Below are positions 7,195-64,000 of a stretch of 64,000 nt of DNA, one piece after another. Source of the DNA: Octopus vulgaris (lineage: Eukaryota); the NCBI GenBank assembly GCA_951406725.2, contig OX597841.1, positions 6,262,001 through 6,326,000 of the forward strand, in the 5' to 3' direction. The position numbers and the translations under genes were made by a program. The notes under the pieces are model-generated. The model did not search any database and had not been told where the DNA came from. It saw only the letters and a program-made list of their open reading frames with translations. Numbering within the stretch: the first letter of the stretch is position 1; each line of letters opens with the position of its first letter.

Positions 7195-7882
7195 ATTTTA
7201 TGATTGCATCGGGGGAATCTATTTTCCAGTTAAGACAGAATCGTGTGATTTGAAGGAGACTTGGCTGTCATTTCTGCAAGATCTAAAGACCACGCAGAGA
7301 CTCTTTCCTTCGTACCTAATGATTATTGTGCTTAGTGATGTTGGATACAATTAGAATTGTAAATTAATATAATTGAAGTTATTTCTGCTTTATATTATGT
7401 TGGGGATTTTTAATACATGTCACCGGTTTCATTCAAACGGAAGAAAATTTATCAACAACATCGTCTACTGTGTTTGTTTCTTGAATTATTTGAGCTAAAT
7501 CTAATTATATCGTATGTAGTAATTATCTCAAATTAAGGTGAACGTTAATATTTGTGGATAAGACGAACAAGTTTGATGGTCGTGATTAAGTATTTAATAT
7601 AATCACATTTTTACATCGTTAATTGGTTTTTCCCTAATTTACAGAAAAGGAAGAAATGGCTTTTAATTAACAACAAATCAATCAGCGAACTTTCTTCAAC
7701 CTTCTCCACACTTCATTTGGACTTTATACCAAACATTCTACTGGTGAGTAGGAAATACATCTACATTGCATCTGTTCCACACTTGTAAACGGAGGACTGT
7801 GATATCTAAGACAAGAAATTGAACCATAACAGATTAACGCACGGACGTTTGTCTACTTTTTAAGAATTCCTCAAGAATTCAT

Positions 7883-8836
7883 ATGGAGAACGTTGATCAC
7901 TTGGACATTTCAAACACAACTGTTTTTAAGAACGGAGATGCAGTAAGAATGGCAGACAGAGATGAGGAAGCTGAAGATAAAAGTGTTGCTGAATATCGCT
8001 GTGAGATTTGTAGGAAGAAATTCTCTTCAGAAGATGAAGTCTTCTCGCACAAAGAAATACACAAGAAGAAGAAGAAACGGTTCCGTTGTGAAATCTGTGA
8101 GAAATCATTTAGTGCTAAAGCTTATCTTTTGATTCACAAACGTAGTCACACAGGAGAAAAACCAATCCATGGGAAATGTTTTGTTTCCAACGGAGATTTA
8201 AAAAGACACAAAAGGATGCACTCGGGGGCAAAACCTTACAGCTGTGAAGTATGTGGGAAAATTTTCAGTCAAAATTCTAATCTTGTTGTTCATAAACGGA
8301 GTCACACAGGAGAAAAACCATTCGAGTGTGAAATGTGTGGGAAATCTTTTGTTTCCAACGGAGATTTAAAAAGACACAGAAAAATCCACACGGGGGAAAA
8401 ACCGTTCCACTGTGAAGTATGTGGGAAAACTTTCAGTCAAAATTCAAATCTTGTTGTTCATAAACGGAGTCACACAGGAGAAAAACCATTCGAGTGTGAA
8501 ATATGTGATAAATCTTTTGTTTCTAGTACTGTCCTAACAACACACAGGCGAATACATACGGGTGAGAAACCTTATCATTGTGGGATGTGTATGAAATCGT
8601 TCACCGATCATTCCAGTCTTGTATTCCACGAACGACAACACACGGGGGAGAAGCCTTATCCTTGTGAAATATGTGAGACCCTGTTTATGTGTAGCAGTGA
8701 CTTAACAAAACACATAAGAATTCACACGGGAGAAAAGCTTTTCCACTGTGGAATATGCGGAAAATCTTTTACTCATAATTCTAGCCTGGTTAGCCACAAA
8801 CGAAGTCACATCACAGGTCGGAAAAGCTTGTTGTGA
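7883..8836 (+). CDS. C2H2 zinc-finger protein, ~9 intact plus 1 degenerate finger; paralogue of 1299..2741
   Basis: 317-aa ORF with TGEKP-linked fingers; N-terminus MENVDHLDISNTTVF vs MENVNHLDIFTTTVF; homologous acceptor TTTACAG at ~7638-7644. Confidence 0.95.
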   Translation: MENVDHLDISNTTVFKNGDAVRMADRDEEAEDKSVAEYRCEICRKKFSSEDEVFSHKEIHKKKKKRFRCEICEKSFSAKAYLLIHKRSHTGEKPIHGKCFVSNGDLKRHKRMHSGAKPYSCEVCGKIFSQNSNLVVHKRSHTGEKPFECEMCGKSFVSNGDLKRHRKIHTGEKPFHCEVCGKTFSQNSNLVVHKRSHTGEKPFECEICDKSFVSSTVLTTHRRIHTGEKPYHCGMCMKSFTDHSSLVFHERQHTGEKPYPCEICETLFMCSSDLTKHIRIHTGEKLFHCGICGKSFTHNSSLVSHKRSHITGRKSLL

Positions 8837-24764: not shown

Positions 24765-25598
24765 TTAATTCCTCGGTTCAAACTTTAGTCTTTTGAGCAA
24801 TGTTGACATAATCTGAGGCATTTGTTTACAGCTATCGTATTCCAGATTATCCAACTTTCTTAATTCCAAAGAGCCAACACGTTTACAGACAGCAGTTAAC
24901 AGTTTCATGATTTCATATTCAGTGCCATATTTCACCAAAACTTTACTTAAAGTTTGCATAAACCACGAACCCTTACGTTTATGAATGACTGACGGATATT
25001 TATCAGACGACGAATGGAAAACCAACATATCTGCCATGATTGGAATTTTCGGTGGCTTTCTTTCAGATTCTTCTTCCTCGGCATCTTTTCTTTCGACTCC
25101 ATCATCAATCTTGCTTCCACGACATGCTTCAATAAAGATTAATTTAGGTATTCCTGTCAGAGATGGACAGCGATCGGGTCTCAGGCAAGAAAGCAATTCG
25201 TCCAGCTCAACTTCACCCTCGTATCCACGTATAATATCGTTTCCTTTACCATGGCTCAGAATCGCACAAACAAAGCAATCAATATTAATTTTAGGATCGA
25301 TTTGGCCCAAATCTTCTAAAGTCCCGAGCATTTCTTTGGCTGTAAAATCTGTAAATACATTGATATCATCTTCATGAAATCCAAGATTTTCTAAAGCCTT
25401 TTTAAAATGTTTTGTGTCTTTCGATGAGCCGTGACGAGTTTCAAGTCTTGGGTCACTGAAATTTTTCACGTTGAAAATGTAGGCAACACCTCGCTTTTCA
25501 TGTGTCATGTCATATTTTTCGAAACATTTCATTAAATCTTCCTCGGTTGGTAAATCGAACTGGGCGCATGTACTACCATTTACATTTACAGTATCCAT
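24765..25598 (-). CDS. Caspase (peptidase C14A), short prodomain, intronless; SHG and EACRG (caspase A)
   Basis: 277 aa: RGVAYIFN, RHGSSKD, CFVCAILSHG, PKLIFIEACRG, PIMADML, GSWFMQTL, KQMPQIMSTLLK. Confidence 0.92.
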   Translation of the reverse strand: MDTVNVNGSTCAQFDLPTEEDLMKCFEKYDMTHEKRGVAYIFNVKNFSDPRLETRHGSSKDTKHFKKALENLGFHEDDINVFTDFTAKEMLGTLEDLGQIDPKINIDCFVCAILSHGKGNDIIRGYEGEVELDELLSCLRPDRCPSLTGIPKLIFIEACRGSKIDDGVERKDAEEEESERKPPKIPIMADMLVFHSSSDKYPSVIHKRKGSWFMQTLSKVLVKYGTEYEIMKLLTAVCKRVGSLELRKLDNLEYDSCKQMPQIMSTLLKRLKFEPRN

Positions 25599-38875: not shown

Positions 38876-39173
38876 TATTTCTGAAACCAAATCAAGTTTG
38901 GCGGTGGTCAGTTGTAACCATAAACCAATTCTTTTTTCAAAAAAATATCTGAGGTCTAAATTCATAAGTAAGAGGTTTAAACGTTCAGATGCGCAGTGTG
39001 CGACATCAATAAACAGTGTTTAGTTCAATTTTAAGAGTGAAAATTATTTTGAAATTTAGTATGTTCGTAGAAAGCTGTGATATTCTTAGTAAAATTTACG
39101 TTAGGAAATACTTTTAGTTAATTATCTAAAAAGTTACAGTATATTTATTAAACCAATATCAATTTGTAATTAT

Positions 39174-39385
39174 CGTGACGTATATTTGCCATTTCAATAT
39201 GGCTAACCCCTAAGGGTGGATGCTACTGTAGTTTTTAGCCCCAGGAGGACACACTCCTCCAGCTGGCCATAGACACACTTTCTGTGCCCTATCAGTATTT
39301 GCAAAGGGAAGTCATCCTTCCCGTCTTCAACTTATGATACACACGGACTCGAGTTTCGAGGTATTGACCTCTCGTCAGCGTGTGA
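39174..39385 (-). mobile_element. 212-bp insertion beginning at a hammerhead motif (Penelope-like or retrozyme-like fragment)
   Basis: CAATTTGTAATTAT duplicated at 39160-39173 and 39386-39399; paralogous caspase flanks lack the insert. Confidence 0.75.
39340..39384 (-). ncRNA. Minimal type I hammerhead ribozyme
   Basis: Minus strand: CACACG CTGACGA GAGGT-CAAT-ACCTC GAA AC-TCGA-GT C CGTGTG; complete core, stems I and II, palindromic stem III, GUC cleavage triplet. Confidence 0.85.
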
Positions 39386-39619
39386 CAATTTGTAATTATA
39401 TTAACAATTATTTAGTTGGAAACATTACATTTATCTATTTATTAATTTCTGCTGTGGGAATAAAATGTGAAAATAGTGTTTTTTCTTTTTGTTGTAGATG
39501 TATGAATTCATAAAATATACTTCTCTTGCAACTGTAAATGCATAAGTTCCAAAAATATATTCTTTTAGTGTAATATTCACATCGAAAGGATATTCTCACC
39601 GTAAGAAGATATTCTCACG

Positions 39620-39850
39620 GTTCAATCTTTAGCTCTTTCAGTTATGTCATCATACGCTGGGGGTTTTGTTTCCAGCGATCTATTTCCGGATTACGACATC
39701 TGATATTCTGTATATTGATATACAAAAAGAAAATTCTGGCATTTTATATTCTGTATATGATATTAATGGATGTTTTTAGTGTCACTTCTGGTTTGAATCG
39801 CAGAACCATTCCATGTTTCGAAGATCAATTTACCTTCATTCTTATACGAC
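39620..39850 (-). pseudogene. Degenerate relic of a caspase small-subunit C-terminus
   Basis: Minus-strand translation RNPEIDRWKQNPQRMMT*LKELKIEP and [10 protein letters not shown] resemble DNPEYNGCKQMPQIMSTLRKEFKFEP and DETNGSCFMET. Confidence 0.6.
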
Positions 39851-39873
39851 GTTCAACGCGGGCTAGCATGTGT

Positions 39874-39940
<67 letters not shown>

Positions 39941-40250
39941 GCGTGTGTGTGCGTATGTGTGCATATGCGTGCATGTGTGTGCGTATGTGTGCGTGTGTGT
40001 GTGTGCGTGTGTGTGTGTGTGTGTGTCTGTGTGCGTGAGCGTATGTGTGCGTATGTGTGCATGTGTGTGCGTATGTGTGCATGTGTGTGCGTATGTGTGT
40101 GTGTGTGCATGTGTGTGCGTATGTGTGTGTGTGTGCATGTGTGTGCGTGTATGTGTGCGTATGTGTGTGTGTGTGTGTGTGTTTCTACATTACTGTGCAT
40201 ATGACTGTGTTTATGTATGTGTATATGTATGTTCTTGGAGTTGTGCGTAT

Positions 40251-41156
40251 TTATGTCGGCTTGCGCGGGCGCTTCTTTGAACTCCCATCCGTTTCCTCAA
40301 GTGGACTTCTGCTTCGCTTACGTGCTTTTGATGAAGCATTTCCCCTCCTCGGTTCAAACTTTAGCTGTTTGAGCAATGTCGACATAATCTGAGGCATTTG
40401 TTTCTCCGGTTCGGGATTGCGTTTAGTTTTGAATTCTTCAGAAGCAACATAGTAAGAGACAGCGGTTAAAAGTGTCAGGAGTTCACGTTCAGTGCCAAAT
40501 TCACTCAAAGCTTTACTTAATGTTTCCATAAAACACGAACCATTCGTTTCATCCCTGAAAGACGAATATTTATTATAGGAGGAATGAAAAACCAACAGAT
40601 CAGGCATAATTGGAATATTGGATAGCGTTTCATTCACTTCTGTTTCAGGGCCATCAGTTACACAGACTCCTTTATCAATCTCTTCTCCACGACATGCTTG
40701 AACAAAAATTAATTTGGGTACTCCACTTAAAGATGGACATTTAACGGGTGTCAGGCAAGAAAGCAAAGCATACAGTCCAACATCGCGGTCGTATGCACGT
40801 AACTGATCGTTTTCCCCACCATGGCTCATAATTGCACAAACAAAGCAACCAACTGGATTACGAGTTCCAACATTTTTGAAAGCATTGAGCACTTCATCGG
40901 CTGTGTTATCTTCAAAAACTGTGACATCCCGTTCAGAAAATCCAAGTTTTATTAATGCCGCTTTAAAAGCTTTTGTATCTTTTGATGAGCCTTCACGATA
41001 TAGAGAATGTTTGTTGAAATTTTCGTGGTTGAAGATGTAGGCTACAAGTCGCTTTTTATCATCCATATCATATTTAGGGAAACATTTACTAAGATCTTCC
41101 TTAGTTGGTGAATGGGGCTGATCGCTTGTCCCAACGTTTTCACCTCCATCTGCCAT
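40251..41156 (-). CDS. Caspase D: canonical SHG/QACRG effector-like caspase with basic C-terminal extension; intronless
   Basis: YREGSSKD, CFVCAIMSHG, PKLIFVQACRG, YSSFRDETNGS; ATG in ACCATGG context at 41156. Confidence 0.93.
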   Translation of the reverse strand: MADGGENVGTSDQPHSPTKEDLSKCFPKYDMDDKKRLVAYIFNHENFNKHSLYREGSSKDTKAFKAALIKLGFSERDVTVFEDNTADEVLNAFKNVGTRNPVGCFVCAIMSHGGENDQLRAYDRDVGLYALLSCLTPVKCPSLSGVPKLIFVQACRGEEIDKGVCVTDGPETEVNETLSNIPIMPDLLVFHSSYNKYSSFRDETNGSCFMETLSKALSEFGTERELLTLLTAVSYYVASEEFKTKRNPEPEKQMPQIMSTLLKQLKFEPRRGNASSKARKRSRSPLEETDGSSKKRPRKPT

Positions 41157-41699: not shown

Positions 41700-42099
41700 A
41701 TACGTACACACACATACACACACACGTACACATACAACCACTGACTTTTGTTGTGGATGAGTTGAATATTGAAACCCTCGCTCGCAGAATGCATGAATGT
41801 ATTTAGGTGTATATGCGAGAAAATGGCTGTGAATGTGTGTGTATGTGTGTGTGTGTGTGTGTGTATGTGTGTGTGTGTGTGTGTGAATACAAATACATAA
41901 AACAGAACACGCTTGGGCACATGCATAATGTTACACACACACATACACACACACACACACTTACACACACACACACACACACACACACTTACACACACAC
42001 TTACACACACACACACATAGACACGCCCGCGGGCAAAATATTTTTGCATTTTTACTCGTCAATGGCCGGAATTTTGAGCTTCAAAATACGGTGCCATCA

Positions 42100-43150
42100 A
42101 TTGCGCCGCCGGGACCTCTCCTTTCAGGGTCCTGAGGGAGATTCCAGAGTTCTACACATCTATCTCCAGCTCATCCCCCTGGCCACCACGGCTTCACCTG
42201 CCCTGATGCCTTTTACCATAAAACAAAATCTGCCTTACGTAAACTTTCACTCTTCCTACTGCAAACATGTCATGCCCAGCCGAGACGCAATAAGGTGAAG
42301 AGGGCCTTCATACTAACCGCGACAGTGTAGCGCAGGGCCTCCACATTAGGGCTCAGGTCAGGGCTTTGATATGTCGGTGATCAAGAGCAGCGCATTCCGT
42401 TGAATAGTTGAGGCAAGTGAGCACTACACCATTTTACAATTTCGTTTGCATTTTGTGGTCAGTGCCAAGGAATCTCCGGAGATGCTTCTCAAAGGAGGCA
42501 AAAGCCTTTCTGGCAGACTGTATTCACCACTTAACTTCCAAGTCAGAAATGTTAATACAAGTCAAAGCACTGTCCAGGGATAAAGCCCTCATGTGTACTT
42601 CAAAGGCTCCCCGTCTACTGTCAATGGCTCTGGAGCCCTCGATATAATATGGCAACTTGGTGGAATCTGGTAGAACGCTGAATTGTCTGCCGAGGGCAAA
42701 ACCCTGACACGCATTTCCCTGATTTTGGTGTAAGTTCGAAGTCGATCCTGGCTGAAGGGCTTCCCATCTATTCTAGTACGGTTTAAATCGCCCTTTTGCT
42801 AGTTGACCATCATGGTGCAAGCACATCTGGACGCAAACATACAAGAAAGCTTGGATAACACGCACCACTGCTTCTCACCGTGGTTGACTGCAAACGATTC
42901 CCTAAATGTCCGCCAACCAAGGCGAATCCTTCCGTCCCCGCGATGTCAACAACCTTCTCCAGCACTTACTAAAGTATTTCTCCCATAACTGTGTCTGTGT
43001 GAAGATTGTGTCCATCGTTCAACTCCCTCACCTGGTGCCACATTGATTCTCTGGTAAGACCTGCTCTGAGATGTCTTTTCAGCCGGTTGAGAATGATCTT
43101 CGTCAACAGCACGCCAGTAATGGCCTCATCTCCATGCAATCATCTCAAAT
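42100..43150 (-). mobile_element. Decayed RTE-clade LINE reverse-transcriptase fragment
   Basis: Minus-strand translation TRIDGKPFSQDRLRTYTKIREMRVRVLPSAD and IQSARKAFASFEK...QTKL*NGVVLTCLNYSTEC; boundaries approximate. Confidence 0.6.
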
Positions 43151-43179
43151 CCCCGCTCAATCTCAATTTTCGCTTTTAT

Positions 43180-43470
43180 CTAATTTTTATTCGTGTCCCA
43201 TACGGGTCCACAAGATTTCTACATACACCACTCCGTGGGTTTATAAAGGTACGAGAGTATTTCACAATGGCGTCAATAAAGACAAGTGTTTGGAAATTGT
43301 GGTAACTGGCTCACTCGTCTGTAAATATATTGGACCCCAGTTCTACACTTTCCATTACGAACGCCTCGGCTGTGTCCAGCATCCAGTCTGGAACCTGTTG
43401 CAGCCTTCCTATCTTCTCAGAGCTCTCGTGTAAATCAACTCCCCGGAAAACACTGATAAACAGCACTAAA
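43180..43470 (-). mobile_element. Decayed Merlin/IS1595(ISXO2)-type DDE transposase fragment (related copies ~47900-48096 + and ~59444-59640 -)
   Basis: Translation VFRGVD...QVPDWMLDTAEAFVMESVELGSNIFTDE*ASYHNF...VKYSRTFINPRSGVCRNLVD resembles my recollection of the Merlin core (VFGGV..VPDR..PGS.I.TD.W..Y...VNHS..FVDP.TG.HTN.IE). Confidence 0.6.
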
Positions 43471-44940
43471 TGCTTTCTAAGATGGCGTCGTCCACGGTGA
43501 TGATGCAGACGACAATGACATCATATATTGTACGTATGACATTTCAGCATTTCTTTAGTGCCACTTAGCTTTGTATTTCAAAACAGTTTCATTTTCCAAG
43601 GACAATTTACTTTCCCTGTAAAAATGACGGTCAATTGCATGATAAACGCGATCGTACATGTGTATGTGTTGTGTGTGGAAGTGTGTGTGTGTGTGTGTGT
43701 GCTTGGTTATGTGTTTGTGTGAAACCTGTTTGGTTTTCTTAAGTGGGATCGTGCTGGGATGGGTCTGGCCAGGGATTAAACTTGGAGTATTTTGCTGGGA
43801 TTAATCCAATGACTTAAAAGTAACATGTGGTTATGCCGCAGAAAAACGATTTTCCCTTCATTTAGCTGTTATTTCTAGCATGTTGAATTTTCTTTGAGGG
43901 GTCCATATTTTACATCTTCTGTTCGGGCGAAATCTACGCGGGCGCAAAGACACATGTTCAATATGTACAACATTCGGAATTTCTTAGTTTTTGTAAGAAG
44001 AAAAATGTAGGAGGAATGACATTGGATCTTTCTTTCTGAAAGTTTAAAATTGAAAAAATCTATCTTTCACATTCGAAATCTCCGTTGATTAAGCAAAAAA
44101 GTAAAATAAAAAACTGTTACCCCAAATCATAATCCTCGATAACAAAAAAATAGGAATGCCTGAGATATTTTTGTAAAATAGAGAGGGTTGAGATAGCGCC
44201 GAACAGCGCCGATATTTGAATCAAAAAAGGGTCACACGAAAATATATCTGAAGGCTGCCCTCATAGGTAAGAGGGTTAAACGGTCAGATGCACGGTGCAA
44301 AATATCCGTAAAGAGTCTTTCTTTCAGTATTTGGAATTTAAAAATTCGGCAATGTTTCGTTGAGGGTCTAAATCTTCGGTAATTTCCGTCACGAAGTTTT
44401 ATATATTTACTTTCTCGTTTCATGTCGTGTTGAAGGTGACATTTGCTTCGAAATCAGTGAGGGGGTGAAAGGTGGAATAGAATGGAGGGCGCGTGCGCAA
44501 TCGTACACAGATAGACACACGCACATACACACACACACACAAACACACACACACAGATCCTTTGAAATTTAGAATTTAACTATAAGGCACAGGTGTTCTT
44601 AATAAAGGCACAGGTGTTCTTAATAAATTTCATGCTGAGAAATACTTTTAGTTAAGTATCACGTTCATGATCATTTTAGCAATTATTTAGCTGAAAATAT
44701 TACATTTATCTATTTATCAATTTATGCTGTTGGTGTTACCTGTGGAAATAGTCATGTTATATATATGTATATATATATATGTATATATATATGTATCGAA
44801 ATCTGCGATGAGGAATCGGTTTCTGACTGAAGAACGAAGGCTTTGAATAACCCGTCTGTCTCTTATGTTCGTCCCTTCGTGTATTTCACGTTATTTATTT
44901 ATGTAAAGGTTTATTATATATATATCTATATCTATATCTA

Positions 44941-45007
<67 letters not shown>

Positions 45008-45012
45008 GTATG

Positions 45013-45106
<94 letters not shown>

Positions 45107-45253
45107 ATACATGAGGTTTTAAAATCTACTCCGTTGCATCTCTGGATGTGTGTGTTTCTAAACCATATTCTTTTCGTACAATATGCAGATGCGTCAGAAA
45201 TTCTCACCGTAAGAAGTTCCATATCTATTTAAGGGTCCCACACCAGAAATATT

Positions 45254-45752
45254 TTACTTCCTCTCTCAAAATTTTAGGTTTTTGAGCAAGGTTGATATAA
45301 TCTGAGGCATTCGCTTACAGCCATTATATTTTGAATTGGAATTCAAAAGAGGCAAGATAGTTTTAATCCGGATCTACCAGCATCGATTTCTTAATCTCAC
45401 GACCAGCTTGACTAAAGATTAATTTAATTATTCCCTATAATGATGGACAGCAATCGAGTCCCGGGCAAGAAAGCAACGCATCTAGCTTCACTTCATCGTC
45501 GTATCCATATATAACATCGTTTTCTTCCCCATGATACAGAATTGCACAAATAAAGCAATCAATAGTGATAACAGGATTATCTTCCTCAAATTCTTTCATC
45601 AAAAGACGAGGATTTAAAAGAGGACCTCAGCTTTTATACAGATGTAACAGTCGAACAAATGTTTGACTTCTGAATCTGTATAAAATCTGAGGTCATCATC
45701 TTGAAATCACGATTTTCTCAAGCCCTTTGAACATCTCCGTCTTTTGATGAAA
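45254..45752 (-). pseudogene. Truncated caspase pseudogene (left arm)
   Basis: Remnants SSKD, CFICAILYHG, LIFSQAGRE (Cys to Gly), MPQIISTLLK; stops, frameshifts and deletions. Confidence 0.85.
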
Positions 45753-48635
45753 GAATTTGAGCAAGATAATCTTGAAATCGTTTTTGATTGCTTTATTTGT
45801 GCAATTCCGCGATACACGAAGGACAGACGTAAAAGCTAATACATGGTATTATTTCGTTGTCATTTCAGAGATTATCCTCCAGAGATTATCCTCCGGAGTG
45901 AAACAAATACCCAAAGAATTGAAGAAACGTTACGCAATGATGCCCAGAAAGTACAATGCAGTGAGAAAACAAAGTAAAACAATTTCTGTTTCGCAGACAA
46001 TGTTTTACTAATCCAGCGATGTATGAGAGCACAGGAATAATATAACCTACATATTGATTTTCGTTAAATAAATATCCCCTAACATTTTAAGGTGCTGCTT
46101 CACTAAAACTATTTCCTCCCGTAAATTTTACTAAAGAACACCAGTGACTTATAGGTCCATTCTAAATTACAAAATAATCCTACATTCTGAAAATTGAACC
46201 AACATTGTTTTATATACAACTAAATATGAACAATATTAATATCTAGGCTATTTTATATATTTTTTTCAATTATTCTGCTATTCTTGTTAAATTCTTGTGG
46301 ATAATCTCCTAATAAAATTTCTCTCTTATAAATGTGAAGTCTCTGAATTGCCAATGAAATATCAAAATGTATCAGCTTTTTCGTTAGTTCTTAATTTATT
46401 TAGATATGTAAAGTGTGAATGAAAACTTCTGTAAATTTCTTTGCCTGCAGCGCAATGTTTCCATTATGGGTTCAATCTTGTCTTTATCTTGCGTCTAATT
46501 GCTCGACAATTTCCGTAAGTAGTTCGTTATGGAAATTGCCGACAACTGAAGGAAAGGCATTTTATCTTTTTCGGACACCTCGCATCTGAACGTTTAACCA
46601 TCTTACTTATGAGTTCAGCCTCCGGATATGTTTTTATGAAATCCTTTCTCTTTCAAATTTCGGCGGGTTTACCCTAACCCCAAATCCATATTCCTTTTCA
46701 TTTATTTCTTACTCTTTCCGATGTTTTAGTTATGGAAGATTACGATTTTGCCAAAAAAAGAAAAACAAAAAGAAATTTTCCAAAATAAAAATTTCTTTCC
46801 CACCCAAAAGTTTTTTTTATTTTACAATTTTTTAAAGAGGGGTTTTGTTTAAACTACGTCTACAGACACGGAGATAGAATCCGGAAGATTTATTCTTTTA
46901 GTTTCAAACTTCCAGAAAAAAGACCCTAAGTTGCTTCTCATATAATTTCCTTCTTTCCAAAAGTAGAAAACTCCTTTTATTAGACGGATTGGATGTGTTG
47001 CTTTGCGCCTGCGTAGAAGTAAAGTACGAACGTAGAAGAAATGTGGAAGCAAAATATGAATCCCTCACTGGAAATGTGGATATGGAAGAAATAAAAGCTG
47101 AAAATATTGTTTCTTCGCCTTAAATACACCTTTTTTAAAAATTCATTCGATTAATTTCGGCAAAGATCTCCAAATCCCTCCCAGGAGAATTCGACTTAAG
47201 AAAACTACGAAGATTTCATACAAACACAAACACACACGCCACACGCACACACTCATACATACACACACAGGCATACACACTCACGCACACACACAAACAC
47301 ACACACCACATGCACACACTCATATATACACACAAACACACACACCACACGCACACACTCATATATACACACACAGGCATACACACTCACGCACACACAC
47401 AAACACACACACCACACGCACACACTCATACATACACACACAGGCATACACACTCACGCACACACACAAACACACACCACACGCACACACTCATATATAC
47501 ACACACAGGCATACACACTCACGCACACACCACACACACACACTTATATATACACACACAGGCATACACACTCACGCACACACCACACGCACACACTTAT
47601 ATATACACACAGAGGAATACACACTCACTCACACACACAAACACACACACCACACGCACACACTCATACATACACACACAGGCATACACACTCACACACA
47701 CATACACACACACACAGACATTCATTCACAACACCCTTATATACGAGAGCAGTTTAACATACACTTGACCGTCATTTTACATTGAAATTGATTTGTCCTT
47801 GGAAACCGAAACTGCGTTGCGATTACAAAGTTGAAGTGGTCCCAAACACATCCTGTAATGTCATAAACCCAATGGATGATGTCAGTTCGAAGTGTTTCCT
47901 CAGTGTTATCCGGGGAATCGATTTACAGGAGAACACTCAGACGATAGAGGACATGCAACAAGTTCCGGACAGAATGGTAGAGCAAATTGTGGCTTTCATA
48001 ATGGAACGTGTGTGTTCTGGGGCCCATTATATTTACAGAGAAGTGCACCAGTTACTATATAATCTCCAAAGGCATCGCTTTATTCAGGCCACTTGAAGTA
48101 CTTTGATGGGGTTAATACAATGAATTAAAATTAAAATAATTTAAGAGAGAATTTATTTCGATATAGAATTTCAGTTTTTGCTTTCGTAGGAAATCTGTTT
48201 TTGTTTTATTTCGCAAATACTCGCGCGTACACTCACACTTAGCCGGAAGACAGACAGACAGACAGACATACACACGAACATACATGTATGTGTGTATGTA
48301 TGTGTGTGTGTATGTATGTATGCATGTATGTATGTATGTATGTATGTATGTATGTATGTATGTATGTATGTATGTATGTTTGTATGCATGTATGTATGTA
48401 TGTATGTTTGTATGTATGTATGTATGTATGTTTGTATGTATGTATGTATGTATGTCTGTATGTATGGAAGAAAAAACTATTTCCACAGGTAACACCAACA
48501 GCATAAATTGATAAATAGATAAATGTAATATTTTCAGCTAAATAATTGCTAATATGATTACAAATTGATATTGGTTTAATAAATATCCTCTAATTTTGCA
48601 AGATGCCTAACTAAACCCATTTCCTAGCATGAATT

Positions 48636-49322
48636 TTATTAAGAACACCTGTGCTTTTTTTAAAAACACCCCTGCCTTTATTAAGAACACCTGTGTCTTT
48701 ATTAAGAACACCTGTGTCTTTATTAAGAACAGATGTGCCTTTATTAAGAACAAACGTGCCTTTATTAAGAACACCTGTGTCCTTATTAAGAACACCTGTG
48801 TCTTTATTAAGAACACCTGTGTCTTTATTAAGAACAGATGTGCCTTTATTAAGAACAAACGTGCCTTTATTAAGAACACCTGTGTCCTTATTAAGAACAC
48901 CTGTGTCTTTATTAAGAACACCTGTGTCCTTATTAAGAACACCTGTGTCTTTATTAAGAACATCTGCATCTTTATTAAGAACACCTGTGCCTTTATTAAG
49001 AACACCCGTGTCTTTATAAAGAACAAATGTGCCTTTATTAAGAACACCTGTGCCTTTATTAAGAACACCTCTGCATTTATTAAGAACACCTCTGCATTTA
49101 TTAAGAACACCCGTGTCCTTATTAAGAACACCTGTGCCTTTATTAAGAACATCTGTGTCTTTATTAAGAACAAATGTGCCTTTATTAAGAACACCTGTGT
49201 CCTTATTAAGAACACCTGTGTCTTTATTAAGAACACCTGTGTCCTTATTAAGAACACCTGTGTCTTTATTAAGAACATCTGCATCTTTATTAAGAACACC
49301 TCTGCATTTATTAAGAACACCA
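48636..49322. repeat. 21-bp minisatellite, ~33 units (TTATTAAGAACACCTGTGYCT)
   Basis: Direct tandem periodicity. Confidence 0.95.
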
Positions 49323-49699
49323 GTTATATTCTAAATTTCAAAATAATTCTTCACTCTGAAACTTGAACTAACAATTAAACAAGTCCAGAAGTTAGGTTAA
49401 ATATATATACAAGTAGAAGTACCATGAATTCCCTTTCTATAAACTGGCAAACAGTTCTGTGAATGCTTCACCGGCCAACGCCGGGTATTAAGTCTAGTAT
49501 GCAACTAAATGCGTACAATATTAATATGGATACTTTCGTAAATCGCTGGATTCGTAAAACATTGTCTGCGAAAGAGAAATTGATTTATTTTTCTTTTCTC
49601 ACAGCATTGTATTATGTCAGCAGCATTCCGTAAAGTTCTTTTTTTTTTTCAGTTCTCCTGCTATTTTTTTACTCTCCTGGAAAATCTCTCAATGATATT

Positions 49700-49957
49700 T
49701 TAGTTAGTTAGTTAATTTTTTGGCTCAAAAAGCAAAAAAGCAAGGCCATGTAGGGGGACATGGAGTTATGTACAGGGTGGTGTTCATGCAAAGAGTTCAG
49801 GCCATTTCTGGTCAAGGGAGGCTTTGAACCGAGCGGTCGTCGGCATCTTCACTATCTCGTCCGGCAGCTTATTCCACGGATCCGCAACCCGGACGGAGAA
49901 AGCCCCTCTCCTTCGATTCAGATGAAATCATCGCAGATAGAGCTGTTTGTCTGTTAT
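49700..49957 (-). mobile_element. CR1-like LINE 3' end with (AACT)n tail (mirror copy ~56935-57190 +)
   Basis: Translation AFSVRVADPWNKLPDEIVKMPTTARFKASLD. Confidence 0.7.
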
Positions 49958-50369
49958 TAACACAAAGTCCCTGAAATGATGACGAAATAATAAAATGTAT
50001 CAGCTTTTATGTTAGTTTTTATGGTCTTAAAATATTTCAAGCTTGAAGAATGGCTCTCATGTATTTCCGTTCGACTGCAACGCCATCTTTCGATGACGTT
50101 TTCAATCTTGTGATTTCCGTATTGTTTTCTTGCAGCTGATTGTTCGGCAATTTCCGTAAGTAATTTCTATTCATTTTCCATCATTTCATGTCCTGTTCAA
50201 TTCGAGTTTGCTTTGATGTCGGTGAGGGAGGCAAAATGAGATATTGAGGCTAGCAATCACTACACGTATATACTCACACACACACACGATCAAACACACG
50301 TACACACGTACACACACACACGTGCACTTGTATCACACACTCGTTACGTGTATATGAAATATAATTGGT

Positions 50370-51086
<717 letters not shown>

Positions 51087-56097: not shown

Positions 56098-56299
56098 GGT
56101 CCCGGGTTGAGTCGGGGTTAACCACAGTAAATAAGGTACTCAATACATAGCAGAGTAAATTAATTTATTATATAGAAGCTTTGGTGATGGTTATAAGGGC
56201 ACTGGGGTGTGCTAGGATATGTAGGTCCCGGGTTGAGTCGGGGTTAACCACAGTAAATAAGGTACTCAATACATAGCAGAGTAAATTACTTTATTATAT

Positions 56300-56372
<73 letters not shown>

Positions 56373-57564
56373 CATATATACGACAGGCTTCTTTCAGTTT
56401 CCGTCTACCAAATCCACTCACAAGGCATTGGTCGGCCCGGGGTTATAGCAGAAGACACTTGCCCATGATGCCACGAAGTGGGACTGAACCCAGAACCATG
56501 TGGTTGGTTAGCCACTCACCAATTATATTTCATATACACGTAACGAGTGTGTGATACAAGTGCACGTGTGTGTGTGTACGTGTGTACGTGTGTTTGATCG
56601 TGTGTGTGTGTGAGTATATACGTGTAGTGATTGCTAGCCTCAATATCTCATTTTGCCTCCCTCACTGACATCAAAGCAAACTCGAATTGAACAGGACATG
56701 AAATGATGGAAAATGAATAGAAATTACTTACGGAAATTGCCGAACAATCAGCTGCAAGAAAACGATACGGAAATCACAAGATTGAAAACGTCATCGAAAG
56801 ATGGCGTTGCAGTCGAACGGAAATACATGAGAAGCCATTCTTCAAGCTTGAAATATTTTAAGACCATAAAAACTAACATAAAAGCTGATACATTTTATTA
56901 TTTCGTCATCATTTCAGGGACTTTGTGTTAATAACAGACAAACAGCTCTATCTGCGACAATTTCATCTGAATCGAAGGAGAGGGGGCTTTCTCCGTCCGG
57001 GTTGCGGATCCGTGGAATAAGCTGCCGGACGAGATAGTGAAGATGCCGACGACCGCTCGGTTCAAAGCCTCCCTTGACCAGAAATGGCCTGAACTCTTTG
57101 CATAAACACCACCCTGTACATAACTTCATGTCCCCCTACATGGCCTTGCTTTTTTGCTTTTTGAGCCAAAAAATTAACTAACTAACTAAAATATCATTGA
57201 GAGATTTTCCAGGAGAGTAAAAAATAGCAGGAGAACTGAAAAAAAAAAGAACTTTACGGAATGCTGCTGACATAATACAATGCTGTGAGAAAAGAAAAAT
57301 AAATCAATTTCTCTTTCGCAGACAATGTTTTACGAATCCAGCGTTTTACGAAAGTATCCATATTAATATTGTACGCATTTAGTTGCATACTAGACTTAAT
57401 ACCCGGCGTTGGCCGGTGAAGGATTCACAGAACTGTTTGCCAGTTTATAGAAAGGGAATTCATGGTACTTCTGCTTGTATATATATTTAACCTAACTTCT
57501 GGACTTGTTTAATTGTTAGTTCAAGTTTCAGAGTGAAGAATTATTTTGAAATTTAGAATATAAC

Positions 57565-58750
57565 TGGTGTTCTTAATAAAGGCACAGTTGTTCTTAATAA
57601 AGGCACAAGTGTTCTTAATAAAGGCACAGGTGTTCTTAATAAAGGCACAGGTGTTCTTAATAAAGGCACAGGTGTTCTTAATAAAGACACAGGTGTTCTT
57701 AATAAGGACACAGGTGTTCTTAATAAAGACACAGGTGTTCTTAATAAAGGCACAAGTGTTCTTAATAAAGGCACAGGTGTTCTTAATAAAGGCACAGGTG
57801 TTCTTAATAAAGGCACAGGTGTTCTTAATAAGGACACAGGTGTTCTTAATAAGGACACAGGTGTTCTTAATAAAGACACAGGTGTTCTTAATAAAGGCAC
57901 AAGTGTTCTTAATAAAGGCACAGGTGTTCTTAATAAAGGCACAGGTGTTCTTAATAAAGGCACAGGTGTTCTTAATAAAGACACAGGTGTTCTTAATAAG
58001 GACACAGGTGTTCTTAATAAAGGCACATTTGTTCTTAATAAAGGCACATTTGTTCTTAATAAAGACACAGATGTTCTTAATAAAGGCACAGGTGTTCTTA
58101 ATAAGGGTGTTCTTAATAAAGATGCAGATGTTCTTAATAAAGACACAGGTGTTCTTAATAAGGACACAGGTGTTCTTAATAAAGACACAGGTGTTCTTAA
58201 TAAGGACACAGGTGTTCTTAATAAAGGCACATTTGTTCTTAATAAAGGCACATTTGTTCTTAATAAAGACACAGGTGTTCTTAATAAAGGCACAGGTGTT
58301 CTTAATAAGGACACAGGTGTTCTTAATAAAGGCACGTTTGTTCTTAATAAAGGCACATCTGTTCTTAATAAAGACACAGGTGTTCTTAATAAAGACACAG
58401 GTGTTCTTAATAAATGCAGAGGTGTTCTTAATAAAGGCACAGGTGTTCTTAATAAAGGCACATTTGTTCTTTATAAAGACACAGGTGTTCTTAATAAAGG
58501 CACAGGTGTTCTTAATAAAGATGCAGATGATCTTAATAAAGACACGGGTGTTCTTAATAAGGACACAGGTGTTCTTAATAAAGACACAGGTGTTCTTAAT
58601 AAGGACACAGGTGTTCTTAATAAAGGAACATTTGTTCTTAATAAAGGCACAGGTGTTCTTAATAAAGACACAGGTGTTCTTAATAAAGGCACAGGTGTTC
58701 TAATTAAGGCAGGGGTGTTTTTAATAAAGGCACAGGTATTCTTAATAAAA
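57565..58750. repeat. 21-bp minisatellite, ~56 units (mirror of 48636..49322)
   Basis: GGTGTTCTTAATAAAGGCACA tandem. Confidence 0.95.
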
Positions 58751-61700
58751 TTCATGCTAGGAAATGGGTTTAGTTAGGCATCTTGCAAAATTAGAGGATA
58801 TTTATTAAACCAATATCAATTTGTAATCATTTTAGCAATTATTTAGCTGAAAATATTACATTTATCTATTTATCAATTTATGCTGTTGGTGTTACCTGTG
58901 GAAATAGTTTTTTCTTCCATACATACAGACATACATACATACATACATACATACATACATACATACATACATACATACATACAAACATACATACATACAT
59001 ACATACATACATACATACATACATACATACATACATACATACATACATACATACATACATACATACACACATACATACATACACCCATACATACATACAT
59101 ACATACATACACACATACATACATACATACATACATACAAACATACATACATACATACATACAAACATACATACATACATACAAACATACATACATACAT
59201 ACATACATACATACATACATGCATGCATACACACACACATACATACACACATACATGTATGTTCGTGTGTATGTCTGTCTGTCTGTCTGTCTTCCGGCTA
59301 AGTGTGAGTGTACGCGCGAGTATTTGCGAAATAAAACAAAAACAGATTTCCTACGAAAGCAAAAACTGAAATTCTATATCGAAATAAATTCTCTCTTAAA
59401 TTATTTTAATTTTAATTCATTGTATTAACCCCATCAAAGTACTTCAAGTGGCCTGAATAAAGCGATGCCTTTGGAGATTATATAGTAACTGGTGCACTTC
59501 TCTGTAAATATAATGGGCCCCAGAACACACACGTTCCATTATGAAAGCCACAATTTGCTCTACCATTCTGTCCGGAACTTGTTGCATGTCCCCTATCGTC
59601 TGAGTGTTCTCCTGTAAATCGATCCCCTGGAAAACACTGAGGAAACACTTCGAACTGACATCATCCATTGGGTCTATGACATTACAGGATGTGTTTGGGA
59701 CCACTTCAGCTTTGTAATCGCAACGCAGTTTCGGTTTCCAAGGACAAATCAATTTCAATGTAAAATGACGGTCAAGTGTATGTTAAACTGCTCTCGTATA
59801 TAAGGGTGTTGTGAATGAATGTCTCTGTGTGTGTGTATGTGTGTGTGAGTGTGTGTATGTCTGTGTGTGTGTGCGTGAGTGTGTATGCCTGTGTGTGTAT
59901 GTATGAGTGTGTGCGTGTGGTGTGTGTGTGTTTGTGTGTGTGCGTGAGTGTGTATGCCTGTGTGTGTATATATGAGTGTGTGCGTGTGGTGTGTGTGCGT
60001 GTGGTGTGTGTTTGTGTGTGTGCGTGAGTGTGTGTGCCTGTGTGTGTATGTATGAGTGTGTGCGTGTGTGTGTGTGTATTTGTGTGTGTGCTTGAGTGTG
60101 TATGTATGAGTGCGTGCGTGTGGTGTGTGTGTTTGTGTGTGTGCGTGAGTGTGTATGCATGTGTGTGAATATATGAGTGTGTGCGTGTGGTGTGTGTGTT
60201 TGTGTGTGTGCGTGAATGTGTATTCCTGTGTGTGTATATATGAGTGTGTGCGTGTGGTGTGTGTGTGTGTGAGTGTGTATGCCTGTGTGTGTATGTATGA
60301 GTGTGTGCGTGTGTGTGTATATATGAGTGTGTGCGTGAATGTGTATGCCTGTGTGTGTATATATAAGTGTGTGCGTGTGTGTGTATATGAGTGTGTGCGT
60401 GTGGTGTGTGTGTGTGTGTGTGTGCGTGAGTGTGTTTGCCTGTGTGTGTATGTATGAGTGTGTGCGTGTGTGTGTATATATGAGTGTGTGCGTGAATGTG
60501 TATGCCTGTGTGTGTATATATAAGTGTGTGCGTGTGTGTGTATATATGAGTGTGTGCATGTGGTGTGTGTGTGTTTGTGTGTGCACGTGAGTGTGTATGC
60601 CTGTGTGTGTATGAATGAGTGTGTGCGTGTGGTGTGTGTGTTTGTGTTTGTATGAAATCTTCGTAGTTTTCTTAAGTCGAATTCTCCTAGGAGGGATTTG
60701 GAGATCTTTGCCGAAATTAATCGAATGAATTTTAAAAAAGGTGTATTTAGGGCGAAGAAACAATATTTTCAGCTTTTATTTCTTCCATATCCACATTTCC
60801 AGGGAGGGATTCATATTTTGCTTCCACATTTCTTCTACGTTCGTACTTTACTTCTACGCAGGCGCAAAGCAACACATCCAATCCGTCTAACAAAAGGAGT
60901 TTTCTACTTTTGGAAAGAAGGAAATTATATGAGAAGCAACTTAGGGTCTTTTTTCTGGAAGTTTGAAACTAAAAGAATAAATCTTCCGGATTCTATCTCC
61001 GTGTCTGTAGACGTAGTTTAAACAAAACCCCTCTTTCAAAAATTGTAAAATAAAAAAACTTTTGGGTGGGAAGGAAGAAATTTTTATTTTGGAAAATTTC
61101 TTTTTGTTTTTCTTTTGGCAAAATCGTAATCTTCCATAACTAAAACATCGGAAAGAGTAAGAAATAAATGAAAAGGAATATGGATTTGGGGTTAGGGTAA
61201 ACCCGCCGAAATTTGAAACAGAAAGGATTTCATAAAAACATATCCGGAGGCTGAACTCATAAGTAAGATGGTTAAACGTTCAGATGCGAGGTGTCCGAAA
61301 AAGATAAAATGCCTTTCCTTCAGTTGTCGGCAATTTCCGTAACGAACTACTTACGGAAATTGTCGAGCAATTAGACGCAAGGAAAGGACAAGATTGAACC
61401 CATAATGGAAACATTGCGCTGCAGGCAAAGAAATTTACAGAAGTTTTCATTCACACTTTACATATCTAAATAAATTAAGAACTAACGAAAAAGCTGATAC
61501 ATTTTGATATTTCATTGGCAATTCAGAGACTTCACATTTATAAGAGAGAAATTTTATTAGGAGATTATCCACAAGAATTTAACAAGAATAGCAGAATAAT
61601 TGAAAAAAATATTACGCAATGGTGCTGAGATAGTTTAATGCAGTGAGAGAAGAAAGATAAAAAATTTCTCTTTGGCAGAGAAACTGTTACGAATCCAGCG

Positions 61701-62222
61701 ATATAGGAAAATACATGAATAAAATAGCCTAGATATTAATATTGTTCATATTTAGTTGTATATAAAACAATGTTGGTTCAATTTTCAGAATGTAGGATTA
61801 TTTTGTAATTTAGAATGGACCTATAAGTCACTGGTGTTCTTTAGTAAAATTTACGGGAGGAAATAGTTTTAGTGAAGCAGCACCTTAAAATGTTAGGGGA
61901 TATTTATTTAACGAAAATCAATATGTAGGTTATATTATTCCTGTGCTCTCATACATCGCTGGATTAGTAAAACATTGTCTGCGAAACAGAAATTGTTTTA
62001 CTTTGTTTTCTCACTGCATTGTACTTTCTGGGCATCATTGTGTAACGTTTCTTCAATTCTTTGGGTATTTGTTTCACTCCGGAGGATAATCTCTGGAGGA
62101 TAATCTCTGAAATGACAACGAAATAATACCATGTATTAGCTTTTACGTCTGTCCTTCGTGTATCGCGGAATTGCACAAATAAAGCAATCAAAAACGATTT
62201 CAAGATTATCTTGCTCAAATTC

Positions 62223-62721
62223 TTTCATCAAAAGACGGAGATGTTCAAAGGGCTTGAGAAAATCTTGATTTCAAGATGATGACCTCAGATTTTATACAGA
62301 TTCAGAAGTCAAACATTTGTTCGACTGTTACATCTGTATAAAAGCTGAGGTCCTCTTTTTAAATCCTCGTCTTTTGATGAAAGAATTTGAGGAAGATCAT
62401 CCTGTTATCATTATTGATTGCTTTATTTGTGCAATTCTGTATCATGGGGCAGAAAACGATGTTATATATGGATACGACGATGAAGTGAAGCTAGATGCGT
62501 TGCTTTCTTGCCCGGGACTCGATTGCTGTCCATCATTATAGGGAATAATTAAATTAATCTTTAGTCAAGCTGGTCGTGAGATTAAGAAATCGATGCTGGT
62601 AGATCCGGATTAAAACTATCTTGCCTCTCTTGAATTCCAATTCAAAATATAATGGCTGTAAGCTAATGCCTCAGATTATATCAACCTTGCTCAAAAACCG
62701 AAAATTTGAGAGAGGAAGTAA
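62223..62721 (+). pseudogene. Truncated caspase pseudogene (right arm)
   Basis: ORF 62317..62541 gives IDCFICAILYHGAENDVIYGYDDEVKLDALLSC, then a stop; LIFSQAGRE follows. Confidence 0.85.
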
Positions 62722-62868
62722 AATATTTCTGGTGTGGGACCCTTAAATAGATATGGAACTTCTTACGGTGAGAATTTCTGACGCATCTGCATATTGTACG
62801 AAAAGAATATGGTTTAGAAACACACACATCCAGAGATGCAACGGAGTAGATTTTAAAACCTCATGTAT

Positions 62869-63013
<145 letters not shown>

Positions 63014-64000
63014 TAGATATAGATATATATATAATAAACCTTTACATAAATAAATAACGTGAAATACACGAAGGGACGAACATAAGAGACAGACGGGTCA
63101 TTCAAAGCCTTCGTTCTTCAGTCAGAAACCGATTCCTCATCGCAGATTTCGATACATATATATATACATATATATATATACATATATATAACATGACTAT
63201 TTCCACAGGTAACACCAACAGCATAAATTGATAAATAGATAAATGTAATATTTTCAGCTAAATAATTGCTAAAATGATCATGAACGTGATACTTAACTAA
63301 AAGTATTTCTCAGCATGAATTTTATTAAGAACACCTGTGCCTTTATTAAGAACACCTGTGCCTTATAGTTAAATTCTAAATTTCAAAAGGATCTGTGTGT
63401 GTGTGTTTGTGTGTGTGTGTGTATGTGCGTGTGTCTATCTGTGTACGATTGCGCACGCGCCCTCCATTCTATTCCACCTTTCACCCCCCTCACTGATTTC
63501 GAAGCAAATGTCACCTTCAACACGACATGAAACGAGAAAGTAAATATATAAAACTTCGTGACGGAAATTACCGAAGATTTAGACCCTCAACGAAACATTG
63601 CCGAATTTTTAAATTCCAAATACTGAAAGAAAGACTCTTTACGGATATTTTGCACCGTGTATCTGACCGTTTAACCCTCTTACCTATGAGGGCAGCCTTC
63701 AGATATATTTTCGTGTGACCCTTTTTTGATTCAAATATCGGCGCAATTCGGTTGTACCCCTATCTCAACTCTCTCTATTTTTCAAAAATATCTCAGGCAT
63801 TCCTATTTTTTTGTTATCGAGGATTATGATTTGGGGTAACAGTTTTTTATTTTACTTTTTTGCTTAATCAACGGAGATTTCGAATGTGAAAGATAGATTT
63901 TTTCAATTTTAAACTTTCAGAAAGAAAGATCCAATGTCATTCCTCCTACATTTTTCTTCTTACAAAAACTAAGAAATTCCGAATGTTGTACATATTGAAC

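Follow-up and report, generated by a model that had tools for sequence, protein, structure and literature searches.

A Clipped Repeat Copy with a Canonical Type I Hammerhead Motif Downstream of a Caspase Gene of Octopus vulgaris

The Caspase Cluster and the Flank behind Caspase D

The window analyzed here, a 64-kb stretch of Octopus vulgaris DNA, contains a cluster of caspase copies whose coding regions are uninterrupted (A to E, 24765–62601), with caspase remnants near 39618, at 45245–45578, and at 62413–62601. Caspases A, C, D, and E all match the Pfam family PF00656. Caspase D, encoded on the minus strand (40251–41156; PF00656, E = 1.4e-44), is an uninterrupted frame of 301 amino acids with intact SHG and QACRG motifs. 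The latter is unique to D among A, C, and D, the corresponding motifs being EACRG in A and ATCRG in C; caspase B is frameshifted, and no CRG motif was seen in E. Caspase C clusters at 90% with a "caspase-1-like" protein of Octopus sinensis. The C-terminal extension of D (KARKRSRS...KKRPRKPT, 40251–40346) is basic and missing from A, B, and C; we take it to resemble a bipartite nuclear localisation signal.

Two intervals, 43956–50598 and 56291–64000, form a large inverted duplication, about 89–98% identical in pieces, with caspase remnants and a 21-bp minisatellite (48635–49324 and 57563–58749). Broken reverse-transcriptase-like fragments, presumably of the RTE type, are seen in translation at 42000–43600, 47700–48100, and 59400–59860, and two C2H2 zinc-finger arrays are recognizable by their visible repeats at 1218–2741 and 7838–8836.

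The resemblance of D to its paralogs stops at 40346. The adjoining ~650 nt (39694–40346, minus strand) were not found in the paralogs by blastn, alignments, and a signal scan; they hold the C-terminal extension and the stop codon of D, a (CA)n tract at ~39866–40185, and a piece resembling 43516–43614. Behind them lies a degenerate remnant of a caspase 3' end (39618–39693, minus strand), matched by blastn to A at 24774–24849 (72%) and to the end of D at 40350–40404 (78%). An earlier sequence-only reading of this DNA had placed the insert described below in sequence homologous to the 3' flanks of the other caspases. The homology is real, but, since ~650 nt of unrelated DNA are followed by a remnant with a homologous flank, the hammerhead sits in the flank of the remnant and not in that of the coding end of D. 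The interval 39694–39866 was considered as a further caspase remnant and found unsupported, 5 to 97 of 200 shuffles scoring as well.

A 212-bp Insert with a Target-Site Duplication

The insert (39174–39385, minus strand), delimited by sequence, alignments, and contigs, is a clipped repeat copy of 212 bp with 48% GC and no open reading frame, and none starts in or behind its hammerhead. As the sequence-only reading had it, it is bounded by a 14-bp target duplication, the identical 14-mers lying at 39386–39399 (5' copy) and 39160–39173 (3' copy) on the minus strand; 12 of the 14 positions are A/T. The last 4 nt of the 5' copy and the first 2 nt of the 3' copy also match the repeat family. The part of the insert 3' of the predicted cut site has a strong predicted fold (z = –3.85; none of 200 shuffles folds as well).

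No second copy of the insert was found in the window. It is absent from all four aligned paralogous caspase flanks, and the target occurs just once in the paralogous sequence around 48.5 kb and 58.8 kb.

Assembled contigs from four of 24 listed sequencing runs (X1, X16, X17, and X19) were compared with the region 38880–39860 only. X17 and X19 are genome-scale runs, the latter with another organism label, and X1 and X16 are guessed to be RNA. In X17, contigs cross into the insert from either flank (27 and 26 letters); in X19 they do so on the left side (27 letters), where the flank haplotype differs. Entries of 26–27 letters are shorter than the 31-letter bar for bridging, and are about the reach into a repeat that would be expected of a 31-mer assembly. 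The insert thus occurs on two flank haplotypes and therefore is not a private, brand-new insertion. A joint that skips 226 positions in X17 and X19 was considered as an empty allele and is read as a paralog instead, because its depth in X17, 107.7, equals that of the letters 39416C and 39419A of the 48.5-kb paralog; in X19 the joint has depth 11, and the same two letters also have depth 11.

The Hammerhead Motif and Its Class

The insert contains a type I hammerhead of the canonical metazoan form at 39340–39384 (minus strand), identified by sequence and by Rfam RF00163. Helix I, as read from the sequence, pairs 39384–39379 with 39345–39340 (6 bp), and is followed by the CUGACGA core at 39378–39372. 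Helix II (39371–39367 with 39362–39358) has either 5 bp around CAAU or 4 bp around UCAAUA, and after GAA at 39357–39355 the palindrome ACUCGAGU (39354–39347) provides a 2-bp helix III with a palindromic loop. With C17 at 39346, the cut is predicted between 39346 and 39345. Thus the three helices follow the type I order, the CUGANGA box, GAAA, and an NUH triplet at the cut site are all present, and the unpaired U1.7 and the loop UCAAUA, ending in A, are kept.

In the search with the Rfam hammerhead model that the sequence-only reading had suggested, RF00163 aligns over its full length (model positions 1–45 of 45) with 32.2 bits and E = 5.2e-6 in an 801-base search, just short of the curated gathering score of 34 bits. 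Because of this small shortfall, a scan of the whole window at the Rfam gathering threshold returns no hammerhead matches; no second hammerhead was found in the 64 kb. Both the completeness of the motif and its description by a 6-bp stem I, the CUGACGA core, a 5-bp stem II, and a palindromic stem III stand, with helix II alternatively of 4 bp.

The class name "minimal" given to it is wrong. In excerpts of PMC4209133, canonical metazoan hammerheads are described by helices of 6 bp (I), 4 bp (II), and 1–2 bp (III), helix III bearing a palindromic loop; an outer helix closes their loop 1, which contacts loop 2. The minimal hammerheads of metazoan Penelope elements instead have a helix II of 7–8 bp, a helix I of 4–5 bp, and an extra unpaired base between positions 9 and 10.1. 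The octopus motif has the canonical helix lengths, and its A9 is directly followed by G10.1. It is, judged by these features, a real hammerhead sequence motif of the canonical metazoan type I and not of the Penelope minimal form.

Canonical motifs of this kind are mostly placed, in the part of PMC7229834 available, in non-LTR retrozymes and not in metazoan Penelope ends, which counts against a Penelope origin of the insert. The copy could accordingly be a clipped solo retrozyme, or a SINE-like hammerhead retroposon of the Schistosoma type, reverse-transcribed by a borrowed enzyme from small circular or multimeric RNA and equally passive at the locus; we regard this as a possible but rather doubtful origin. 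Features in common with the retrozyme hammerheads of Schistosoma, coral, mussel, and axolotl (PMC4209133 and PMC7229834, each in part) are the 6-bp helix I, the helix II of 4 bp whose loop ends in A, the 2-bp helix III with a palindromic tetraloop, and the unpaired U1.7. The canonical type I motif, a strongly folded, highly self-paired non-coding body with GC below 50%, and a duplication longer than 4 bp are all listed for retrozymes in the available text of PMC7229834.

An Abundant Repeat Family

In octopus, the repeat of which the insert is a copy is very abundant. The region 38880–39860 is matched by 4,067 contigs in X17 and 2,133 in X19, most of them less than 99% alike. The summed depth in X17 is 0.5–1.3 million on the insert versus 0–340 on the flanks, and in X19 0.06–0.33 million versus 8–42; this excess of about four orders of magnitude in summed contig depth is not a copy number. 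We infer a family of tens of thousands of copies. Contigs of the family also occur in the two runs guessed to be RNA (431 in X1 and 44 in X16), as would suit a retrozyme.

The copy near D differs from the majority letter at few of its 212 positions, namely two listed places in X19 and five in X17. At 2.5% change, the 45-nt motif would stay unchanged with a probability of 0.32, and its 17 core positions with a probability of 0.65. Given so few differences and these values, an intact hammerhead is expected of a young copy without selection.

Ten variants reach at least 5% in a DNA run: five at unpaired positions, three that keep a predicted pair, and two that break one. The pattern is a weak sign of structural constraint on the modeled fold, with too few variants for covariation. 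The eight unpaired or pair-keeping variants would speak for a retrozyme and the two pair-breaking ones against it.

The ratio of depth in the hammerhead bin to that in the body bin is 0.08–0.09 in X1 and X16 versus 0.47 in X17 and 0.29 in X19. Likewise, letters at 39358 that alter stem II make up 59% and 62% in X1 and X16 (in X16, from one contig) versus 18% and 21% in X17 and X19. Hammerhead contigs (39342–39374) that are scarcer and altered in stem II in the runs guessed to be RNA fit self-cleavage of intact family copies in vivo. We treat this as a lead and do not count it as evidence, contigs being unable to show RNA levels or ends and the RNA status of X1 and X16 being a guess.

A search of the literature yielded no publication on the octopus hammerhead repeat family. 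For the giant squid, 235 Rfam hammerhead loci are tabulated in a paper that does not analyze them, and the word "ribozyme" is absent from the main text of a 2026 paper on O. vulgaris repeats (PMC13282606). The supplements of PMC7229834 and PMC13282606, or the repeat library deposited with that O. vulgaris paper, may already contain this family.

Clipped Ends of the Copy

On the 5' side, the match to the repeat family ends at 39389, within the microhomology, where at least four contigs of X1, one of X16, and seven of X19 have loose ends behind this position (237 further loose ends exist beyond those listed). The match ends on the 3' side at 39172. There the loose ends lie at 39171–39172, with at least three contigs in X1, one in X16, 26 in X17, and 13 in X19. 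At least 31 X17 contigs run straight into (TA)n at 39171, while at least 26 others listed in this run share a 3' extension of at least 30 nt, whose far end lies outside the contigs and which is also present in X19, X1, and X16. The contigs thus point to two classes of 3' ends in the family, with an optional extension of at least 30 nt or with TA repeats; the copy near D is without the extension. Three of the six tabulated joints are strand-switching.

The segment 39328–39339 (minus strand), which starts with U1.7, represents the 3' strand of an outer helix I according to duplex energies: –5.1 kcal/mol with the 9-nt motif on the family side versus –0.6 kcal/mol with the host 9-mer that replaces it. 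Since the upstream strand of the family pairs with this segment, the family hammerhead should have an outer helix I closing loop 1. Judging from the sequence, the copy is clipped inside helix I, the outer strand of the family having been lost at a 4-nt match to the target and replaced by host DNA. Because the family sequence runs on in different ways on the two sides, we discarded a model in which the insert would be a single circular unit whose ends overlap.

Non-LTR retrozymes are head-to-tail repeats of 150–450 bp with one hammerhead per unit, according to excerpts of PMC7229834. The insert is a single copy in the window, and no unit-length back-joint was seen in the four runs, the reference being shorter than the family unit. 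Joints leading from the 3' end to the 5' end are absent from all four runs, which counts only weakly against a retrozyme in view of the longer family unit; the sole joint that goes back is local, from 39369 to 39292 in X17. A contig of X16 continues 237 nt upstream of the hammerhead and has no second match to the insert there. The copy near D is unlike retrozymes in that it was seen as one clipped, dispersed copy, with no tandem unit or circular junction seen and with the outer helix I missing. A preprint on Xenopus (bioRxiv 10.64898/2026.07.22.740005) describes, in the part available, solo retrozyme monomers that are evenly dispersed, a point in favor of a retrozyme origin.

Probable Origin of the Insert

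We consider it fairly probable that the insert is a 5'-clipped single copy of a repeat, likely a Penelope-type terminal piece or a non-coding derivative of one, and that it is likely passive at this locus. Against this reading stand, besides the canonical class of the motif, the retained U1.7 and loop II, the folding penalty of the core and the host pairing given below, the conserved AATAAA past the insert, and the occurrence on two flank haplotypes. The two 3'-end classes fit Penelope initiation better than retrozyme formation. A Penelope element described in part of PMC11167929 has an optional tail of 30–40 bp between two start sites of reverse transcription, cleaves AT-rich DNA at ATT, and inserts from uncut RNA; duplications of variable length and inverted truncated copies are named as Penelope signatures in an excerpt of bioRxiv 10.1101/2021.04.23.441226. 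An AT-rich target and a duplication, here of 14 bp, are also found at this insert, these traits not being unique to Penelope-like elements. In Octopus vulgaris, 31 recently active Penelope-like families are reported in the consulted part of PMC13282606.

The closest comparison is with Penelope pLTRs such as Poseidon PAc of Anolis (PMC11167929, in part), which share with the octopus family a hammerhead shortly upstream of the 3' end, an apparently optional 3' extension, an AT-rich target, many truncated dispersed copies, and some strand-switching joints. The octopus copy differs from them in having no linked frame for a reverse transcriptase with endonuclease, no open reading frame in or behind the hammerhead, and a canonical motif instead of the minimal form with its helix II of 7–8 bp. 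No reverse transcriptase gene was linked to the family in the sequences compared, which counts against a Penelope origin. The origin from a Penelope element with a dimer-capable palindromic stem III, suggested by the sequence-only reading, is thus upheld by the two 3'-end classes, the AT-rich target, and the predicted two-copy fold (below), but not by the hammerhead itself, which is canonical. Penelope and retrozyme origins are close relatives, because the preprint 10.64898/2026.07.22.740005 derives retrozymes, in its available part, from Penelope terminal repeats.

For the Penelope-type origin, the following course of events may be proposed. An endonuclease encoded by the element would nick AT-rich DNA, and reverse transcription of uncut RNA would start at the usual 3' end point of the family, 172 nt behind the cut site, and stop inside helix I at the 4-nt match to the target. 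Repair would then leave the 14-bp duplication. The ribozyme likely serves the RNA cycle of the element, either as a monomer braced by contacts between loops I and II or as a dimer through ACUCGAGU. The copy near D lacks the outer strand of helix I and has no partner nearby.

Predicted Folding of the Copy

In four context windows, folding gives the active register of helix I a probability of 0.03–0.07, versus ~0.93 for a register slipped by one base, which is favored because the stem alternates CA/UG and slips by one base. In the isolated core the active register reaches ~0.6. In its context, the copy is thus predicted to take the slipped, inactive register. At 6.6 kcal/mol, the penalty for folding the core alone falls inside the range of 19 unrelated motif matches (4.8–13.7 kcal/mol), and so nearest-neighbor folding, which ignores tertiary contacts, does not show inactivity. 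A fold of two copies lies 4.9 kcal/mol below two monomers, with an 8-bp intermolecular helix III. The host sequence CAACU (39418–39414) pairs with the orphaned strand of helix I with a probability of 0.97–0.99 in a 131-nt window and 0.14 in 751 nt.

Contact between U1.7 and the last A of loop II has been proposed to suffice for fast cleavage at 10 mM Mg2+ (reported in PMC11875169, excerpt), and the monomers of coral and mussel retrozymes cut at about 0.8 and 0.1 per minute, respectively (PMC7229834, in part). The Penelope hammerhead of PMC11167929, as far as that source is available, cut in vitro only with its protein present.

Polyadenylation Signals and Possible Effects on Caspase D

The stop codon of D (40251–40253) lies 866 nt from the hammerhead, close to the ~870 nt stated earlier, and the motif is in sense orientation. 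AATAAA indeed occurs on the minus strand on both sides of the insert. The first canonical signal past the stop codon (39438–39443, +808; sequence and alignment) precedes the hammerhead by 54 nt; its equivalents are GATAAA in B and E, GATGAA in C, and AATAAA in A. The second (39144–39149), 10–24 nt downstream of the insert, is common to four of the five aligned flanks (A, B, C, and the hammerhead flank, not E), and is likely the ancestral poly(A) signal, as judged from the alignment. Its position is +1102 for D versus +230 to +257 in A, B, and C. Variant signals lie closer to the stop codon of D, including TATAAA at 39743–39748 followed by a U-rich run.

D transcripts probably end mostly before the hammerhead. 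One X1 contig corresponds to 39723–39860 with no differences and stops at 39723, 20 nt behind this TATAAA, in a run guessed to be RNA. X1 contigs are absent over 39408–39704 and 38880–39143. Coming from contigs of one study, neither this stop nor these gaps are counted as evidence. X16, likewise guessed to be RNA, contains paralog-like contigs of the homologous flank.

The proposal of the sequence-only reading that long 3'UTR isoforms of D could self-cleave stays alive, because the conserved AATAAA lies downstream of the insert. One reading would be co-option, with the hammerhead serving as a negative element in a long 3'UTR of D. A transcript running through 39438 and using the signal at 39144 would be cleaved 200 nt upstream of the latter and so be parted from its poly(A) tail. 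We judge such co-option improbable, even though the sense orientation, the intact core, U1.7, and loop II, the insertion just upstream of a shared signal, the QACRG motif of D, and the X1 contig and the paralog-like X16 contigs, if they are RNA, are all compatible with it. The hammerheads in mammalian Clec2 3'UTRs (PMC2950038 and PMC6765202, each in part) are a precedent, in that a sense hammerhead lies between the stop codon and the poly(A) signal, and the Clec2d ribozyme reduces the output of reporters by 80% (PMC2950038, excerpt). Those motifs are discontinuous, conserved across mammals, and reporter-tested, whereas the octopus motif is a young repeat copy known from genomic sequence. Further points against co-option are the lost outer helix I with the slipped register predicted, the lack of a second hammerhead in the window, the canonical AATAAA and several variant signals upstream, and the intactness expected without selection. 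In so abundant a family, some sense copies should fall by chance no more than 1 kb from a gene end. Xenopus retrozymes are depleted from exons (0.24–0.32%), according to the part of bioRxiv 10.64898/2026.07.22.740005 available.

It is also conceivable, though we give it little credence, that the copy cuts only read-through RNA past the real poly(A) site of D, perhaps aiding termination or trimming run-on RNA ahead of caspase C, with no selected function. Its position 54 nt behind a canonical AATAAA and its intact core would allow this, but misfolding is predicted in context, and the tested Penelope hammerhead needed its protein in vitro (PMC11167929, in part). A more elaborate scheme, in which the retroelement hammerhead upstream of the ancestral signal would cut long transcripts of D, the canonical caspase of the cluster, when braced by the host CAACU or by trans pairing through ACUCGAGU with the abundant family RNA, with the AATAAA at 39438 as an escape route, seems very unlikely to us.

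Most likely, then, an ordinary piece of a retroelement is carried along here as a passenger and does not regulate the intact caspase D. Animal genomes commonly contain dispersed hammerhead copies. The modest gain is the family itself: an abundant repeat of octopus that combines a canonical hammerhead with Penelope-like 3' ends would provide an invertebrate example of the proposed derivation of retrozymes from Penelope elements. Should long D isoforms be cut, a mobile ribozyme would control the mRNA of its host, of which there are few natural cases, and if the trans pairing were true, transposon RNA levels would tune a cell-death protease. The clean insertion and the empty paralogs make cleavage of D isoforms easy to test.

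Hammerhead Motifs in Other Data Sets

No match to the family was found in 18 metagenome loci, prokaryote genomes, or viral contigs, and exact-motif scans of the prokaryote genomes and viral contigs gave no matches. The 18 metagenome loci contain 19 motif matches that carry the same stem III palindrome, none of which aligns to the insert. The loci L002–L018, a dispersed repeat family with no relation to the insert, have this palindrome and a longer loop II. In locus L001, which is likewise unrelated to the insert, a 662-bp unit is repeated exactly in tandem, each unit carrying a canonical type I hammerhead (273–304 and 935–966); this looks like a retrozyme-type array.
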